From positions 20 through 64,019 of the forward strand of contig JADGNY010000011.1 of assembly GCA_017883235.1 (NCBI GenBank): a stretch of DNA of 64,000 nucleotides. The letters are read 5' to 3'. Positions 27,353 through 32,909 of this stretch are shown here, in pieces. Each line of letters begins with the position of its first letter. The first letter of the stretch is position 1. Both the position numbers and the translations under genes were made by a program. The stretch is from Thermoanaerobaculia bacterium (lineage in GTDB: Bacteria; Acidobacteriota; Thermoanaerobaculia; Gp7-AA8). A model generated the notes under the pieces. That model worked only from the letters and a program-made list of their open reading frames with translations. It did not search any database and had not been told where the DNA came from.

Positions 27353-27415
27353 CACAAAGCAGGTTGGAACCCCTAATGCGTGTCGGGCCACGCGAATAAA
27401 AGGGCTACTAGAGAA

Positions 27416-28609
27416 ATGATGCCGACGCTTAGCTCAACGTATGACCAATGGATACCCGGTGTTCTTTCGAAGATTCAGATCAAAGCATTAATCGCCGACG
27501 ACTTCATTACAAACACGTCGTCTGAGCCTAGTGCATTCGATTACTCCTCGATGGATCTTCATTTGACGGAGGAAGGGTATCGGCTACCCAATGGCTCGAT
27601 AAAACCCTCCGGTACCAGGTACCTCCACCACGTAAAGCTTTCAAGTAAATGCGAAACACTGTCACCCGAAGGTGACGGGTCATTTCTTCTTAAACGGCAG
27701 CACACGTATCTCTTCAAACTCTCGGAGAGACTTGTGCTCCGCGAAGTCATCCGAGAGATGGGCGGTCTTTACGGGCAAGCAACAGCAAAGAGTTCAGTCG
27801 GTCGCGTCGATGTTCTGGCGCGGCTCATCGTAGACGGCTCACGTGATTATGAGATCTTCGCCCCTGAGGATTTTACTGACCGTGACGGCAAGGGTGATAT
27901 GTATGTTGAGATCACCCCCATTACATTCGATGTGAAGCTACGCCCCGGAGGATCAGTCAATCAGTTGCGCCTTTTTTTGGGTGCACCTAGTGAAGTAGAG
28001 ATGAGGGGCGATGTTTTGTATCGTAGGGTGCTGCGCACCGCGGGCAACAACTCTGATGGATCGCTCTCCGTCAACCTCGACGATACTACTATCTGTGGAG
28101 AATCGACTGCGGCGTTTGTCGCGACGCCTCCTTCGGAGCAGAACTCGAGAGAACCGGTTCGGCTATGGAAAGATGACAAGATCGAGAAGCCTAACCCTAG
28201 GCTCTTCTGGAGTTTACTGAAAGCCGACGAGTACAAGCGGCTTACCATCGCGAAGGATAATTTCTACATTCTGCGTTCGAAGGAAGCTATCGCTCTACCC
28301 AAAGGTGTGGCAGTGTATTGCCGCGCATCAGACGAAACCATCGGTGAAATGCGGATTCATTATGCGGGATTTGTCCACCCTCTCTTCGGGTACAATCGCA
28401 CTGACGGTAAAGTCGGGACGCCGCTAATCTTTGAGGTCAGAGGGCACAACGTGAACGTGAGTCTGGTGGACGGCGAAAGAATGGCGAAACTGACATTCTA
28501 TCGGATGTCTCAAGATGCAGTGCAGGATGCTGAGACCGATATGTCGTACAACGATCAAGAGCTGCAGCTTTCGAAATTCTTCGCCGATTGGAGCCCGTCT
28601 CAGAATTAA
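27416..28609 (+). CDS. Tandem-domain dCTP deaminase-like protein (long DCD / PF06559-like architecture)
   Basis: Half 1: GVLSKIQIKALIADDFI, SSMDLHL, AKSSVGRVDVLARL, MYVEITP..GSVNQLRLF. Half 2: FYILRSKEAIALP, IHYAGFVHPLFG, GTPLIFEVRGHNVNVSL..MAKLTFYRM. These parallel the Dcd motifs (GRSSLARLG, VLE, QL.F). The gene is markedly AT-richer than nrdJ. An alternative GTG start lies at 27380. Confidence 0.7.
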   Translation: MMPTLSSTYDQWIPGVLSKIQIKALIADDFITNTSSEPSAFDYSSMDLHLTEEGYRLPNGSIKPSGTRYLHHVKLSSKCETLSPEGDGSFLLKRQHTYLFKLSERLVLREVIREMGGLYGQATAKSSVGRVDVLARLIVDGSRDYEIFAPEDFTDRDGKGDMYVEITPITFDVKLRPGGSVNQLRLFLGAPSEVEMRGDVLYRRVLRTAGNNSDGSLSVNLDDTTICGESTAAFVATPPSEQNSREPVRLWKDDKIEKPNPRLFWSLLKADEYKRLTIAKDNFYILRSKEAIALPKGVAVYCRASDETIGEMRIHYAGFVHPLFGYNRTDGKVGTPLIFEVRGHNVNVSLVDGERMAKLTFYRMSQDAVQDAETDMSYNDQELQLSKFFADWSPSQN

Positions 28610-28625
28610 AGACGTCTGTATCGCT

Positions 28626-29744
28626 ATGATAAACACGCAAGCCGATATTCGTGTGATTCGCCTTAGCGCGAGCGACGTCTCGCATGGGACGGACCATCTT
28701 CGTGCTTTTGAAAAACTAATTCTGACGAATGAAGATAGCTATCCGAGAATCAATAGATGGCTGCACGAAAAGGTTTTGGATGGTGTCAAGACCGGCGAAC
28801 GGGTGGCGTTCGTTGGCTACAATGGTTCACAGCCAGCCATCTCAGCAGTGGTAAAGCGCGGCAAGTGTTCGAAGTTTTGTCATCTCAGGATTGATCATGG
28901 TCTACAAAACGTCAATCTCGGCGATATGTTTTTTGCCATGATGTCGAGTGAAGTGAAGAAGTTCGCATCCGAAGTTCACTTCACACTGCCGGAGAGTTTG
29001 TGGGCTGAGAAGCGTGGTTTTTTTCAGAGCTTCGGGTTTTCTTCTGCTGCCGTCTCTCGTACGCAATATCGTCTTGGAGAAGTTGAGTTACGGTGTTCTG
29101 CTTCCTTCGAAAACGTGTGGTCAGCGACGCGTCGAAAATTGCCGAAGCTCGCACGCACTTTTCGCTCTGGTGGCTACCACCTTGAGATGCCGCTACTGAT
29201 GTCGCTCAAGCCATGTTTCGCGGAAGCTATCTTCAATGGAATGAAACGCTACGAGATACGTAAAAAGTTTTCCCGTCGATGGCTCGGAGCTCGTGCCGCG
29301 ATTCTCGCGACGCGCCCGACCAGCGCTCTTTTTGGAGAAGTGACAATTGGGACGATTCGGCATGCGCCCCCGTCAACCATTTGGAGCAGCTTCGGAGACT
29401 CGCTAGGTTGTTCCGAGTCGGAATTTGTCGATTATTGCGTTGACGCGAAGGAAGTGTTTGCTATTGAGCTAACCGAAGTAACTCCGTATCTGTTTCCAGT
29501 TCCCTTGCGGCAATTGGCCTATCTTCTGGATCGCGAGCTGCAACCGCCACAATCTTATTCTGATCTCTCTGAATCGCCATCGTGGCGCGAAGCGGTTTCA
29601 CTAGCTGCGATTCTCCACGGTAATTTGACCGTCCCTCCGAAGCTGGTGGCGCATCATCGTCTTCAAGACGTGTGGTTACCCAACGAGACAAAGACTTTGT
29701 TTGACTACGAACGGCGTCTGTCATTGTCACCGCCTGTCAGTTAA
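28626..29744 (+). CDS. GNAT-like acetyltransferase / ASCH (PUA-like) domain fusion protein
   Basis: The N-terminal ~170 aa have a GNAT-like pattern (VAFVGYNG..ISAVVKRG...LGDMFFAMM..EKRGFFQSFGF). The C-terminal part, PLLMSLKPCFAEAIFNGMKRYEIRKKF..AAILATRP..LFGEVTIGTI..IWSSFG..SESEFVDYC..VFAIEL, fits the ASCH pattern. It starts 16 nt after the previous stop and is low in GC. Confidence 0.6.
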   Translation: MINTQADIRVIRLSASDVSHGTDHLRAFEKLILTNEDSYPRINRWLHEKVLDGVKTGERVAFVGYNGSQPAISAVVKRGKCSKFCHLRIDHGLQNVNLGDMFFAMMSSEVKKFASEVHFTLPESLWAEKRGFFQSFGFSSAAVSRTQYRLGEVELRCSASFENVWSATRRKLPKLARTFRSGGYHLEMPLLMSLKPCFAEAIFNGMKRYEIRKKFSRRWLGARAAILATRPTSALFGEVTIGTIRHAPPSTIWSSFGDSLGCSESEFVDYCVDAKEVFAIELTEVTPYLFPVPLRQLAYLLDRELQPPQSYSDLSESPSWREAVSLAAILHGNLTVPPKLVAHHRLQDVWLPNETKTLFDYERRLSLSPPVS

Positions 29745-29854
29745 AGTATCTCGCCGCTTCTGTGAAAGAGAGACCACACCTCGTTGGTAAGTTGGGGTCG
29801 TATCTGGAAAATCAACTTAACGTGTCCCGGCCGGCGAAGCCGGCGTGAGAGCCG

Positions 29855-30589
29855 ATAGAGGTAGGGAGAACCCGTTAGGGCTCCCCCTCCCTCCGCACCG
29901 GACGTGCGGATCTCCCGCATCCGGCTCTCCAGTTGGCGGTCCTGTTCAGGATAGATGTACACGTGGGACTTGCATCGCGGTGAAAGAGGTCCGACGTGCT
30001 GGCTCATGCGAGCCGCTCTGTCACCAGAGTCGATCTACATCGGTTGCTCACCGGCCCTGCGCGTATGAACTCGAATTCGTCTGCTCATATCTGTCGCGTT
30101 CTAGCCTTTCGGCAATGGACGATCAGCGCGTTTCCGGCTTGCTCCCGATCCACCTTCCTGCCTCCCTTTGCTCCACGCCCGTTACGACGCTTCCTTGCTC
30201 CTATGGAGGCTCTGACTCCCGCCCGCCTTTCACTCGCGCGGAGGGGTATCCCCGATTCACGACACCTGAATCTTTCTGTCGTTCTGTGTCCAACCACCCG
30301 ATGTCTTCCCATGTCCGCTTTCCCTTCGCTCGTTTCTTCTCGCGTTCTGGGGTCGTCACCTTAGGACCGTTTCTCGTCTGCGCCCACAGGTTCTCTCGGC
30401 TTCGCCACTGGCTAGCAGGCTCGCCAAGACACCAGGCCGAATCGACTTCCTCTCGTACGGACCGACAGACTCGCCTTCCGTTGCTCCCCACCTCGCCTTC
30501 CGGCGACGCAGTTACCGTCGGCTTTCAACCAGTCGAGCGTTTGGTTGAGAGTGTTTTCACCTCCTCTTCAGATGTGCTCTCTGGCGCAC
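29855..30589 (-). mobile_element. ORF-less group II intron (IIC-like), 735 nt
   Basis: The minus strand starts GTGCGCCAGAGAGC. Near the 3' end is a domain V-like hairpin, GAGCCGGATGCGGGAGATCCGCACGTCCGGTGC (AGC triad, 2-nt bulge). It is followed by a domain VI-like stem with a bulged A (CCCTACCTCTAT) 7 nt from the end. The intron sits 3 nt downstream of the GC hairpin CCCCCGCCTGAAGGCGGGGG. Its boundaries are defined by comparison with the empty site at 31775-31825. No RT-like ORF is present; ORF 29845-30813 is antisense noise. Confidence 0.75.
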
Positions 30590-30654
30590 TAGCCCCCGCC
30601 TTCAGGCGGGGGGACACCGTGTCCCCCCAAGTTGGGAGCCCGCTTCAGCGGGCG
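30590..30654 (-). repeat. Occupied intron target: hairpin module (GCCCGCTGAAGCGGGC ... CCCCCGCCTGAAGGCGGGGG CTA)
   Basis: Reverse complement of 30590-30654. It is a paralogue of 31733-31797. Confidence 0.7.
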
Positions 30655-31125: not shown

Positions 31126-31425
31126 ATGTCGTTCATGGCACGCGACCTGGAGACGATGGTTCGTAACGCGTTGGAGCTCTCGGAGAGCGATCGGGCGACG
31201 CTGGCCCGCCTGCTGATCGAGAGCCTGGAGCCGCCGCCTGATCCCGAGGTCGAAGAGCTTTGGGCGGTCGAGGCCGAGCGTCGCTGGCAGGAGATTGAGT
31301 CGGGCGCCGTTCAGGCTGTCCCGTGGGAAGAGGTTCGTGCGCGATTGTTCGCCGGGGATGATCAGATCGGGGTTGACCCGGAAGCCGATTGTGCTCAACC
31401 GAAGAAGCGTCGCCTTGCTCGGTAG
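31126..31425 (+). CDS. Putative addiction-module antitoxin component (TIGR02574/Unstab_antitox-like), orphan
   Basis: LELSESDRATLARLLIESLEPPPDPEVEELWAVEAERRWQEIESGAVQAVPWEEVRARL is the typical pattern. No toxin ORF lies downstream. The 3' tail runs into the TAGGGCCATGGCCCTA repeat. Confidence 0.7.
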   Translation: MSFMARDLETMVRNALELSESDRATLARLLIESLEPPPDPEVEELWAVEAERRWQEIESGAVQAVPWEEVRARLFAGDDQIGVDPEADCAQPKKRRLAR

Positions 31426-31438
31426 GGCCATGGCCCTA

Positions 31439-31712
31439 TCGCGGAAGAGAAAATGCTTCTTGCAGAGGAGTTTTCGCTTCCTGCAGAGGCCGAAACTCCT
31501 CTGACAGAGCACTTTTGGCTTCTTTCAGAACACCGAAATCCTCCTCGATAGGGCCATGGCCCTACCTCAGAAGGAAACCTGTTCTGAGGGAACAAAAAAC
31601 GCTCCTCAAGAGGAGAATCTGCTTCTGCGAAAGCGAAACTGTTCTCGAAGAACGATAGACGCTCTCGAGGAACGAAGAACGCTGTCGAGGAACAAAAAAC
31701 GCTGTCGGAGCG
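31439..31712. repeat. Degenerate 20-22-nt periodic array of mini-hairpins, split by the palindrome TAGGGCCATGGCCCTA (31423-31438 and 31549-31564)
   Basis: Example units: AGAGGAGTTTTCGCTTCCTGC / AGAGGCCGAAACTCCTCTGAC / AGAGCACTTTTGGCTTCTTTC / AGAACACCGAAATCCTCCTCG. These are followed by about 7 further ~21-nt units ending ...AACAAAAAACGCTGTCGGAGC. Confidence 0.5.
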
Positions 31713-31732
31713 ACTGGCAACGGCTCTCTTTC

Positions 31733-31825
31733 GCCCGCTCAAGCGGGCTCGCGAAATGGGAGGGGATCGCGGTTCCCCCGCCTGAAGACGGGGGCTACGG
31801 TCTTACGCCGGCTTCGCCGGCGGGG
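31733..31825 (+). repeat. Unoccupied paralogue of the group II intron target (three-hairpin module)
   Basis: GCCCGCTCAAGCGGGC ... CCCCCGCCTGAAGACGGGGG CTA | CGGTCTTACGCCGGCTTCGCCGGCG. The occupied copy reads ...GGCGGGGGCTA[intron]CGGCTCTCACGCCGGCTTCGCCGGCC. Confidence 0.7.
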
Positions 31826-32138
31826 GTTGTCACGCGGAACTTGCGAGCGGAGGTAACGCCTTGCATACTCGGGATATGCCCGCCGCCGGCAAGCACTTTC
31901 TGGACGACTTCGAGTCCCTTCCCGATCCGAGAAGCGGGAGGTTCTGTCGAATCTTCTCAGGAGCTCACGGGACATCGACTACTCCGAGGTCGGTGACGAG
32001 GAGTTGGTGGCGGCTGCCGATGCGGTCTTCATCGAGTACGACCGGATGGAATGGAACGATTGAACGTGCCGAATCGCGGGGAGGACGATCCCCGTAACAG
32101 GCCGCTTGCCCCTTTGGGCGAACGGCGACAACTACTCC

Positions 32139-32327
32139 GAGGCAGTTAACTGCCTCTCGGAGGCAAATCACTGCCTCTCGGAGGCAAATCACTGCCTCCC
32201 GGAGGCCATTAACTGCCTCTCAGAGGCCATTAACTGCCTCCCGGAGGCCATTAACTGCCTCTCGGAGGCCATTCACTGCCTCCCGGAGACCGTTAACTGC
32301 CTTTCGGACACCGTTCTCTGCCTCCTG
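32139..32327. repeat. Tandem array, 9 x 21 bp of palindromic units (GAGGCAGTTAACTGCCTCTCG type)
   Basis: Nine head-to-tail 21-mers were counted. Unit 1 contains the perfect palindrome GAGGCAGTTAACTGCCTC. The array explains the N-terminal CLSEA repeats of ORF 32106-32909. Confidence 0.9.
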
Positions 32328-32375
32328 GCGGGCGACCTCGTTACAATATCCACCAAAATTGGATGCTGCCGCGGC

Positions 32376-32407
32376 CAACCGACAACCGACAACGCGGCGA
32401 AGCCGCA
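32376..32407. repeat. (CCGACAA)n + GCGGCGAAGCCGC element copy
   Basis: CCAACCGACAACCGACAACGCGGCGAAGCCGC, same as 2328-2363. Confidence 0.8.
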
Positions 32408-32426
32408 GAAAACAGGAGGCGTTACC

Positions 32427-32909
32427 TTGAATCGTCTGCTTCGCAGTCTTGCTGTGCTTCTCATCCTCACCGCTCCCGCCCTCTACGCGGCGGAGCCGAA
32501 GGAAACGATCCATGTCGTCATCACCGGGGGAGCGAATGCCGGGACGTATGACGGGACCACCGACCGCGGCGGCTGTTCGGCGGGGATGACGGGGAAGGGC
32601 TCGTGGGGGAATCAGTACTCGCTGGTGAAGGAGAACAATCCCAAGGTGTTGAACAGCCTGCAGCTCATCGTGCCGGACGCCAAGGCGGCGGCCTCGGGGA
32701 CGCACGACTTCTTCCTCAATGTCGCGTTCGGCCGAATCACGGCGCGGGTCGCGGAGTACAAGGTGGAGACGGAGAAGAAGAGCGGCAGCGGGACGGTCAC
32801 CGTCCACGACAAGGGCGCAACGGCCGTCGTGAACTTCGACGCCACCACCGCCGCGGGCGTTCATCTGGTCGGGACGATCGACTGCAAGAGCGTGCTGCGG
32901 GCGCAGTAG
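32427..32909 (+). CDS. Small secreted protein of unknown function
   Basis: TTG start 8 nt after AGGAGG (32414-32419). Signal peptide LNRLLRSLAVLLILTAPALYAAEP. The mature part is beta-rich. Confidence 0.65.
   Translation: MNRLLRSLAVLLILTAPALYAAEPKETIHVVITGGANAGTYDGTTDRGGCSAGMTGKGSWGNQYSLVKENNPKVLNSLQLIVPDAKAAASGTHDFFLNVAFGRITARVAEYKVETEKKSGSGTVTVHDKGATAVVNFDATTAAGVHLVGTIDCKSVLRAQ

Follow-up and report, generated by a model that had tools for sequence, protein, structure and literature searches.

What is the 735-nt segment at positions 29855-30589 on the minus strand of this 64-kb stretch of DNA (the whole of which we call the window), and could it still act as a ribozyme and a mobile element? 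The sequence-only reading had claimed it to be a group II intron without a reverse-transcriptase gene, apparently intact, inserted next to a GC hairpin and still able to splice or mobilise. Our preferred reading, which as a whole we consider likely, is that of a genuine and complete class C intron without an ORF, a member of a non-autonomous lineage that uses a related intron-encoded protein (IEP) in trans, with this particular copy in decay.

The feature is a genuine group II intron, complete but ORF-less, and belongs to class C (IIC). The Rfam domain V/VI model RF00029, whose gathering score is 40, reaches 46.0 bits over 29855-29929 on the minus strand (E = 7e-6 for the whole window), and this is the sole group II match in the 64 kb. 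The intron RNA runs from 5' GUGCGCC at 30589, where the GTGCGCC start had indeed been placed by the sequence-only reading, to 3' ...CCCUACCUCUAU at 29855.

29855-30589, minus strand: complete ORF-less group II intron of 735 nt, 5' GUGCG ... CUAU 3' (RF00029; family 5' HMM; full-length alignment to the relatives L128, L140 and L145; empty site)

Its boundaries were set with the help of an empty site, which we sought using a query made of the 75 nt upstream of the intron joined to the 75 nt downstream. This query matches 31775-31821 on the plus strand, where 23 nt from the 5' flank run straight into 25 nt from the 3' flank, at 94% identity. The empty copy reads ...GGGGGCTA followed directly by CGGTCT..., which puts the insertion point between 31797 (A) and 31798 (C), and because the bases at the intron ends (G and U) differ from those across the empty junction, the intron is exactly 735 nt long. 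Its ends are those of the consensus, with GUGCG at 30589-30585 (5' GUGYG) and ...CUAU at 29855 (3' AY), in agreement with the empty-site paralogue, and the expected ligated exon junction is GGGGGCUA followed by CGGCUC. The RF00029 match and this paralogue together bear out the claim of a 735-nt minus-strand group II intron.

The Rfam search, which had been proposed as a check, gave a divided result: RF00029 scored above its gathering score, but at E values up to 10 the models for domains I-IV gave no group II match in the window beyond RF00029 and a weak plastid domain V model, unlike the relative L001, which does match RF02001. With the domain I-IV models silent on the window, the presence of domains I-III is shown instead by homology to relatives, with which they could nonetheless be aligned, and an HMM of the family's 5' region gives the window 322 bits over 30578-30148. 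The window is bacterial chromosome, with the intron placed between convergent gene sets and bordering a segment of low GC3. A blastn search of the intron against a phage collection gave no match.

The site that the intron occupies is itself a repeated structure, and its parts are as follows.

30593-30612, minus strand: GC hairpin in the 5' exon, CCCCCGCC-UGAA-GGCGGGGG (fold of -18.1 kcal/mol, z = -3.4)
30590-30654, minus strand: upstream portion of the occupied target copy, a REP-like multi-hairpin element some 95 nt long (matched to 31732-31797 by inverted repeats I4 and I6)
29826-29854, minus strand: start of the 3' exon, with C (29854) as the presumed IBS3 and then the hairpin GCCGGC-UUC-GCCGGC of the same repeated element (inverted repeat I9)
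31732-31825, plus strand: empty paralogue of the target element, without an intron and inverted relative to the occupied copy, 1.2 kb from the intron (flank search and repeat finder)

The hairpin of the 5' exon has an 8-bp stem that none of 200 shuffled sequences equalled in stability, and three nucleotides (CUA) separate it from the intron start, so that the claimed insertion 3 nt after a stem-loop is what the coordinates give (hairpin 30612-30593, intron from 30589). There is no run of U after this hairpin, nor was it flagged as an intrinsic terminator. On the other side of the intron, inverted repeat I9 pairs the 3' flank (29826-29850) with 31801-31825. The window thus holds two copies of the target element in inverted orientation, one occupied and one empty, and the same multi-hairpin element flanks the introns in the relatives L145 and L135. 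We also considered an attC/integron target, as suggested by a GTTAAGT close downstream, and rejected it on the shape and orientation of the element, which by inspection consists of three or four separate short hairpins rather than the one long imperfect palindrome of an attC site.

Within the intron, all six RNA domains were found.

30251-30584, minus strand: domain I, intron nt 6-339, with closing stem 6-10/335-339 (covarying pairs, RNAalifold on 18 family members)
30214-30250, minus strand: domain II, intron nt 340-376 (covarying hairpin, columns 417-487 of alignment A2)
30160-30210, minus strand: domain III, intron nt 380-430 (covarying stem, columns 491-569 of alignment A2)
29935-30159, minus strand: domain IV without an ORF, comprising a Shine-Dalgarno-like stub, AGGAAGGUGGA (30159-30149), and then about 185 nt of filler (comparison with relatives)
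29895-29927, minus strand: domain V, intron nt 663-695, with AGC triad, AC bulge and the private mismatch A664-G694 (RF00029 alignment)
29855-29894, minus strand: domain VI, with branch-point A728 (window 29862) and the 3' splice site AU (RF00029 alignment and fold)

Domains I-III of the window intron can be aligned with more than 25 relatives. RNAalifold predicts 85 pairs on an 18-sequence alignment of this region and finds compensatory changes in 62 of them; at the highly conserved columns the window intron shows only two private deviations, a number similar to that of autonomous relatives. A 5'-terminal hairpin, GUGCGC...GCGCAC, which we had first taken as conserved, was dropped in favour of the covarying domain I closing stem that RNAalifold prefers. 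At the 3' end, the domain V-like hairpin that had been described, with its AGC triad and 2-nt bulge, lies at 29927-29895 with AC as the bulge, and the unpaired A that had been noticed in a domain VI-like stem 7 nt from the 3' end is A728, at window position 29862. The fold of domain VI has a lower stem of 5 bp and an upper one of 11 bp, with A728 unpaired between them and separated from the 3' end of the intron by 7 nt (-29.1 kcal/mol, z = -5.1), and where its stem differs between the window and the relative L099, pairing is preserved.

Domain IV is where the window intron departs from its full-length relatives, which have about 1354 nt there and encode an IEP of 408-445 aa, the ATG following the conserved Shine-Dalgarno-like stub. 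The window intron aligns with these relatives over nt 1-442 and again over nt ~640-735. A tblastn search with the relatives' IEPs and a search of the six-frame translation with a family IEP HMM revealed neither an IEP gene nor a remnant of one in the intron or in the 64-kb window; the small ORFs within the intron have no Pfam match, and these results together uphold the claim that the intron lacks a reverse-transcriptase ORF. When domain IV was compared with the IEPs of distant and close relatives, and with full-length relatives at the DNA level, it yielded no credible IEP remnant, one match (E = 0.019) overlapping domain V and not being colinear. The filler is common to the window, L128, L140 and L145 (81-84% identity), and is unrelated to that of L099. 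Since the intron carries no ORF, its dependence on an IEP supplied in trans, as had been claimed, is supported.

We used several searches to place the intron among its relatives. A distant blastn search against plasmids led to ltrA-bearing introns of Paraburkholderia and Cupriavidus, matched in domain I. With the window's domain V as query, a genome scan listed at least 119 stretches, most of them in MAGs of Acidobacteriota, Verrucomicrobiota, Planctomycetota and Gemmatimonadota, and 24 contigs came from metagenomes scanned for a domain I motif peculiar to the lineage. Three metagenome contigs (L128, L140 and L145) carry ORF-less introns of about 737-741 nt that align with the window intron over their full length, at 89% identity for L128 and L140 and 84% for L145, and a MAG of Acidobacteria gp7 (L099) carries an ORF-less intron of 744 nt with 90% identity in domains I-III. 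Within the ORF-less lineage, whose members come from different contigs or genomes, identity in domains I-III is 84-94%. A neighbour-joining tree of this region groups the ORF-less introns of the window, L128, L140 and L099 (~735-745 nt) in a clade that is sister to the full-length, class C-like L124, L142 and L130, with L145 branching just outside the group; L019 and L092 represent independent losses of the ORF elsewhere in the family.

The insertion sites of these copies differ. L128 and L140 sit at the hairpin GCAGGCG-AGGG-CGCCUGC with IBS1 CGGUC and EBS1 GAUCG, and since 44 nt of their 5' flanks are shared, the two may stand for a single repeated target and not for independent events. The element that holds L145 is of the same family as that of the window intron, with A-U in place of C-G as the fifth EBS1-IBS1 pair (UGCUA with UAGCA). 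We rejected L145 as an orthologous locus because tblastx finds no resemblance between its outer flanks and the window; the two share only ~25-50 nt of the repeated element on each side, and the same repeated target is the better reading. The same element family also holds L135, a full-length, IEP-encoding intron with the same EBS1, whose first hairpin agrees with that of the window at 22 of 22 nt, and which could illustrate the type of a candidate autonomous partner.

The simplest reading of these comparisons is that the ORF was lost before the ORF-less copies diverged, and that the ribozyme probably stayed under selection and kept moving thereafter. Of the 113 pairs modelled among the five ORF-less copies (window, L128, L140, L099 and L145), 80 are invariant, 20 are variable but remain paired and 10 have a break in some member. 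Movement of the lineage after loss of the ORF would require an IEP in trans, and the presence of the same filler at two types of target, each with a matching EBS1, argues that the lineage did move with a protein supplied in this way. Copies without a complete IEP are also frequent more widely: among the matches listed, 76 copies with an identical domain V were evaluable for IEP status, of which 15 have none and 16 a partial one. Among them are ORF-less introns of another subtype that look complete, from Longimicrobiales, Tepidisphaeraceae and an unclassified proteobacterial MAG, and in two other genomes among the matches listed, IEP-less and IEP-bearing copies with identical domain V occur together.

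Exon recognition follows from a short pairing between the intron and the end of the 5' exon.

30590-30594, minus strand: IBS1 GGCUA, the last 5 nt of the 5' exon (5/5 pairing with EBS1)
30410-30414, minus strand: EBS1 UAGCC at intron nt 176-180, within the loop of a domain I hairpin (alignment; covariation with the 5' exon)

Across 31 distinct sites of the family, EBS1 and IBS1 pair at 141 of 155 positions, compared with 96.9 +/- 4.8 when shuffled, and none of 10000 shuffles reaches 141. All 15 relatives checked begin their 3' exon with C, and L145 with U; a GC hairpin stands 1-7 nt (mostly 2-5) 5' of the intron in every relative with a readable 5' flank. In a simple test for an EBS2-IBS2 pairing, the complement (CCCGCC) of exon positions -6 to -11 proved absent from the intron, and these positions fall within the hairpin stem. 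In class C introns the EBS1-IBS1 pairing is usually of 3-4 bp. The IEPs of the relatives L027 and L124 comprise RVT_1 and GIIM without an endonuclease domain, and score 204-236 bits against the class C reverse transcriptase structures 7UIM and 6AR1 as against 127-160 bits for IIA and IIB structures. Insertion after a hairpin and the short EBS1-IBS1 pairing are in keeping with the IIC-like behaviour that had been claimed, and the assignment to class C is thus one by insertion behaviour and by the proteins of relatives.

In most of these respects the intron resembles known class C introns. According to PMC1702495, these insert a few nucleotides after an inverted repeat or a terminator-like hairpin. 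Like B.h.I1 of Bacillus halodurans, O.i.I1 of Oceanobacillus iheyensis, GsI-IIC and the E. rectale intron (PDB 7UIM), the window intron has a short EBS1-IBS1 pairing and no complement to positions -6 to -11, it shares with them compact domains I-III of about 430 nt, and it is class C introns whose solved reverse transcriptases are most similar to the IEPs of its relatives, which lack an endonuclease domain. It differs from them in having no IEP, in a hairpin that is not followed by a run of U, in its repeated multi-hairpin target and in an EBS1-IBS1 pairing of 5 bp.

Whether this copy remains functional is a separate matter. The A-G mismatch that had been noted at the second pair of domain V is real and lies between A664 (window 29926) and G694 (window 29896). 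Among the matches listed, all 121 otherwise identical copies of domain V have U at the position of G694, making the G private to the window. The RF00029 score of the window intron, at 46 bits, is some 11 bits below that of the sister copies L099 and L128 (57 each), L145 scoring 53, and in the predicted fold G694 removes two basal pairs of domain V (-17.1 compared with -20.1 kcal/mol). Domain I carries two further private mismatches, A8-G337 in the closing stem (30582/30253) and G74-G111 (30516/30479), bringing the private broken pairs to three, compared with 0-2 in L099, L128 and L140. In the yeast ai5-gamma intron the pairs of the domain V triad, pair 2 included, are essential. In RmInt1, single natural point mutations abolish splicing or retrohoming (PMC4496777), and it is on this, together with conservation, that the functional weight we give to the domain V mismatch rests.

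From its sequence, then, the window intron is most likely a weakened or inactive, decaying non-autonomous copy. The description of the intron as apparently intact is doubtful, and more favourable than it should be, in view of the private G694 (among the 121 copies listed) and the two breaks in domain I. Its supposed ability to splice or mobilise is likewise doubtful, given that G694 costs about 11 bits of RF00029 score and frays two basal pairs of domain V. The copy might nevertheless retain residual or partial activity, since domains I-III, the three breaks aside, are conserved as well as in autonomous relatives. G694 could also be a sequencing or assembly error.

Alternatively, the intron may be functionally intact though non-autonomous, so that it splices, can be mobilised by any related IEP that is expressed and tolerates the A-G mismatch. 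The presence of all domains, an EBS1-IBS1 pairing of 5/5, an intact domain VI and branch A, and just two private changes at the highly conserved columns of domains I-III are all consistent with this, as are the empty cognate target 1.2 kb away and the structure-preserving evolution of the ORF-less relatives; imperfect RNAs can, moreover, be bound and stabilised by IEPs. We nonetheless consider an intact intron unlikely, because the mismatch affects the ribozyme's most conserved helix and occurs in none of the 121 relatives among the matches listed whose domain V is otherwise identical, two more private broken pairs accompany it (one of them in the domain I closing stem), RF00029 scores 11 bits under the sister copies, and the empty copy of the target close by has not been filled. 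A different history, in which the ORF-less state is young, had been offered by the sequence-only reading: the insertion of a full-length class C intron, followed by deletion of its ORF at this locus. The family has lost the ORF repeatedly, with L092 and L019 retaining domain IV remnants that flank, or begin and end, the ORF, and the Shine-Dalgarno stub has been kept in the window copy. Deletion in situ is however not supported, and we give it next to no credence: the ~185 nt of filler are 81-84% identical in L128, L140 and L145, which have other flanks and whose unrelated outer flanks argue against their being one locus, and no IEP remnant appears even against the closest full-length relative.

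The host could instead have kept the intron and hairpin for a purpose of its own where an acquired gene island ends, such as blocking transcription or stabilising RNA, with ribozyme activity being irrelevant. The position between convergent gene sets at the border of the low-GC3 segment would suit such a role, as would copies in the same element in two other contigs (L145 and L135). On the other hand, there is no sign of more conservation than retrohoming to a repeated target would explain, the paralogous element works without an intron, and the domain IV filler evolves faster than the core (81% and 92% identity, respectively, between the window and L128), all of which makes domestication very improbable. 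We therefore return to the reading of a decaying copy from a trans-mobilised lineage, which would entail the following course of events. An ancestral intron would have lost its reverse-transcriptase/maturase ORF, while the shortened RNA retained the ribozyme core together with the stub of domain IV that binds protein in related introns. This RNA would have spread by reverse splicing into hairpin-associated sites followed by reverse transcription, using in trans the IEP of a related autonomous intron, as experiments have shown for the ORF-less TeI3 introns (PMC2882425). The window copy would then, after insertion, have gained the three private pair-breaking substitutions, A8-G337, G74-G111 and A664-G694. 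Counting against the use of a trans-acting IEP in this host, no IEP-encoding intron lies within the 64-kb window.

The closest precedent comes from the ORF-less TeI3 introns of Thermosynechococcus elongatus, whose mobilisation in trans has been demonstrated by experiment (Mohr, Ghanem and Lambowitz 2010, PMC2882425). Like the window lineage, these lost the ORF of domain IV and then spread to several sites with good EBS-IBS pairing, while retaining the domain IVa region and presumably relying on the IEPs of related autonomous introns. Our argument for a trans-acting IEP in the window lineage is the same as that made for TeI3 (PMC2882425). The two cases differ in that TeI3 is of a non-IIC class and its full-length relatives have IEPs with DNA-binding and endonuclease domains (PMC2882425), and in that TeI3 occupies a single genome and has clear N- and C-terminal ORF remnants, whereas the window lineage is spread over different metagenomic contigs or genomes, has no detectable remnant and is known from sequence alone.

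ORF-less copies of B.c.I7 at several sites in Bacillus cereus E33L have likewise been taken as evidence of mobility (PMC2504315). Such copies, like the ORF-less entries of the bacterial group II intron database, are interpreted as being mobilised in trans by a complete relative, and are regarded as comparatively rare (PMC2504315; database PMC3245105). Compared with B.c.I7 and the ORF-less introns of the database, the copies of the window lineage differ from one another by 6-16% and have no autonomous partner seen in the same genome. The survey made by Simon and colleagues is reportedly the main one of ORF-less bacterial introns. Its conclusions on them enter here as relayed in PMC4424553 and PMC3245105 (Simon et al. 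2008). The literature that calls ORF-less introns rare rests on cultured genomes.

For the state of the window copy, the better comparison is RmInt1, an intron of a non-IIC class. Copies of RmInt1 in Sinorhizobium meliloti 1021 look full-length and yet carry single inactivating point mutations, among them one in domain V and another that breaks a domain I pair, in which they resemble the window intron (PMC4496777). Unlike the window intron, RmInt1 encodes its own IEP, and its mutations were tested experimentally (PMC4496777).

The window intron is thus a class C example of an already known kind, that of the ORF-less intron mobilised in trans, and what it adds to the annotation of the window is a 735-nt intron, so far unannotated and probably decaying, within an intergenic repeat. 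It goes slightly beyond the literature in that the ORF-less lineage extends across contigs or genomes, and in how frequent IEP-less or IEP-partial relatives are. It also provides a class C case in which the ORF-less state is older than several insertions in different contigs and in which structure-preserving substitutions followed the loss of the ORF. With an empty and an occupied target only 1.2 kb apart and a natural mismatch in the triad helix of domain V, the locus lends itself to testing trans-mobilisation and how much change the catalytic core tolerates.

Beyond this single locus, we suggest only tentatively, as a possibility about which we remain somewhat doubtful, that the intron belongs to a genome-crossing, MITE-like family of class C introns without ORFs, which over evolutionary time would persist and find new targets in uncultured soil phyla such as Acidobacteriota, parasitising the IEPs of related autonomous introns and homing to a repeated multi-hairpin element. 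In these lineages, copies that lack the ORF or have a degenerate IEP may be common rather than rare. If this pattern holds, non-autonomous "hitch-hiker" introns would be a regular part of the ecology of group II introns in soil bacteria, and one that annotation pipelines keyed to the reverse transcriptase would overlook.

The ORF-less group II intron of the window lies within a repeated multi-hairpin, REP-like element of ~95 nt, of which there are two copies in inverted orientation with ~1.1 kb between them:

30590-30654 plus 29826-29854, minus strand: occupied copy, ~95 nt, holding the intron
31732-31825, plus strand: second copy, ~95 nt, without an intron

The same element flanks the introns of two metagenome contigs, L145 (carrying an ORF-less relative) and L135 (carrying a full-length, IEP-encoding relative). 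Upstream in the occupied copy are the hairpins GGGGGGACA...UGUCCCCCC and CCCCCGCC...GGCGGGGG, which have a C-run in common and are mutually exclusive.

Other repeats lie near the empty copy. A 20-nt tandem repeat (TCTCGARGAACGA...CGC) is present three times directly upstream of it, at 31643-31702, and the palindrome GGTAGGGCCATGGCCCTA occurs twice, at 31418-31447 and 31544-31573. At 32114-32344 there is a 21-nt unit (CTCGGAGGCAAATCACTGCCT and variants) in at least eight tandem copies. Because this last array sits within an ORF of high third-position GC (32106-32909, plus strand), it probably encodes a heptad-repeat protein; searches of Pfam, NCBIfam and PADLOC with this ORF gave no match above family threshold.

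Adjoining the intron, two genes in 27380-29744 (plus strand) have a third-position GC of 0.52-0.57, compared with 0.91 in the adjacent RNR gene:

within 27380-29744, plus strand: dCTP deaminase-like gene with DCD_N and DCD_C domains
within 27380-29744, plus strand: 409-aa ORF, residues 225-353 matching PDC-M11B (E = 3e-22)

PDC-M11B is a PADLOC candidate defence family, and the two low-GC3 genes may represent an acquired defence islet.

The ORF-less introns of metagenome contigs L128 and L140 are 99% identical and have 44 nt of 5' flank in common, target hairpin included (L128 267-310, L140 2514-2557), while their 3' flanks are unrelated to each other; the L140 intron also has a changed 3' end (...CCCCCUAU). 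There may be a second target element that is repeated, or the 3' splice site may have undergone a rearrangement. The L145 intron has the domain V bulge CA in place of the conserved AC (889-963), a 3' exon beginning with U, not C, and three broken pairs private to it, and thus looks like another decaying copy. Family members L077 (7-3460) and L120 (3211-6107) reach 2.9-3.4 kb, and domain IV of L077 contains an additional 439-aa ORF (MPTTYRPYNPEQ...), which may be a transposase that has inserted there.

Among the copies that share an identical domain V, a Thermoanaerobaculia MAG (L035) carries it twice on the same strand, 296 nt apart (2455-2487 and 2751-2783), an arrangement for which a tandem 3' fragment and a nested insertion are both possible explanations. 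Another group (L007, L026, L053, L118, and also L032, L050, L056 and L117) combines the identical domain V with a domain I of a different subtype (Rfam group-II-D1D4-4). These copies come from Longimicrobiales, Tepidisphaeraceae, Vicinamibacteria and one unclassified proteobacterial MAG, have a total length of roughly 0.3-1 kb, and have no IEP within 2 kb. In several of them the domain V-VI match extends over ~150 nt, which points to a large insertion in domain VI. Copies of this subtype may represent additional intron families, ORF-less or miniaturised.
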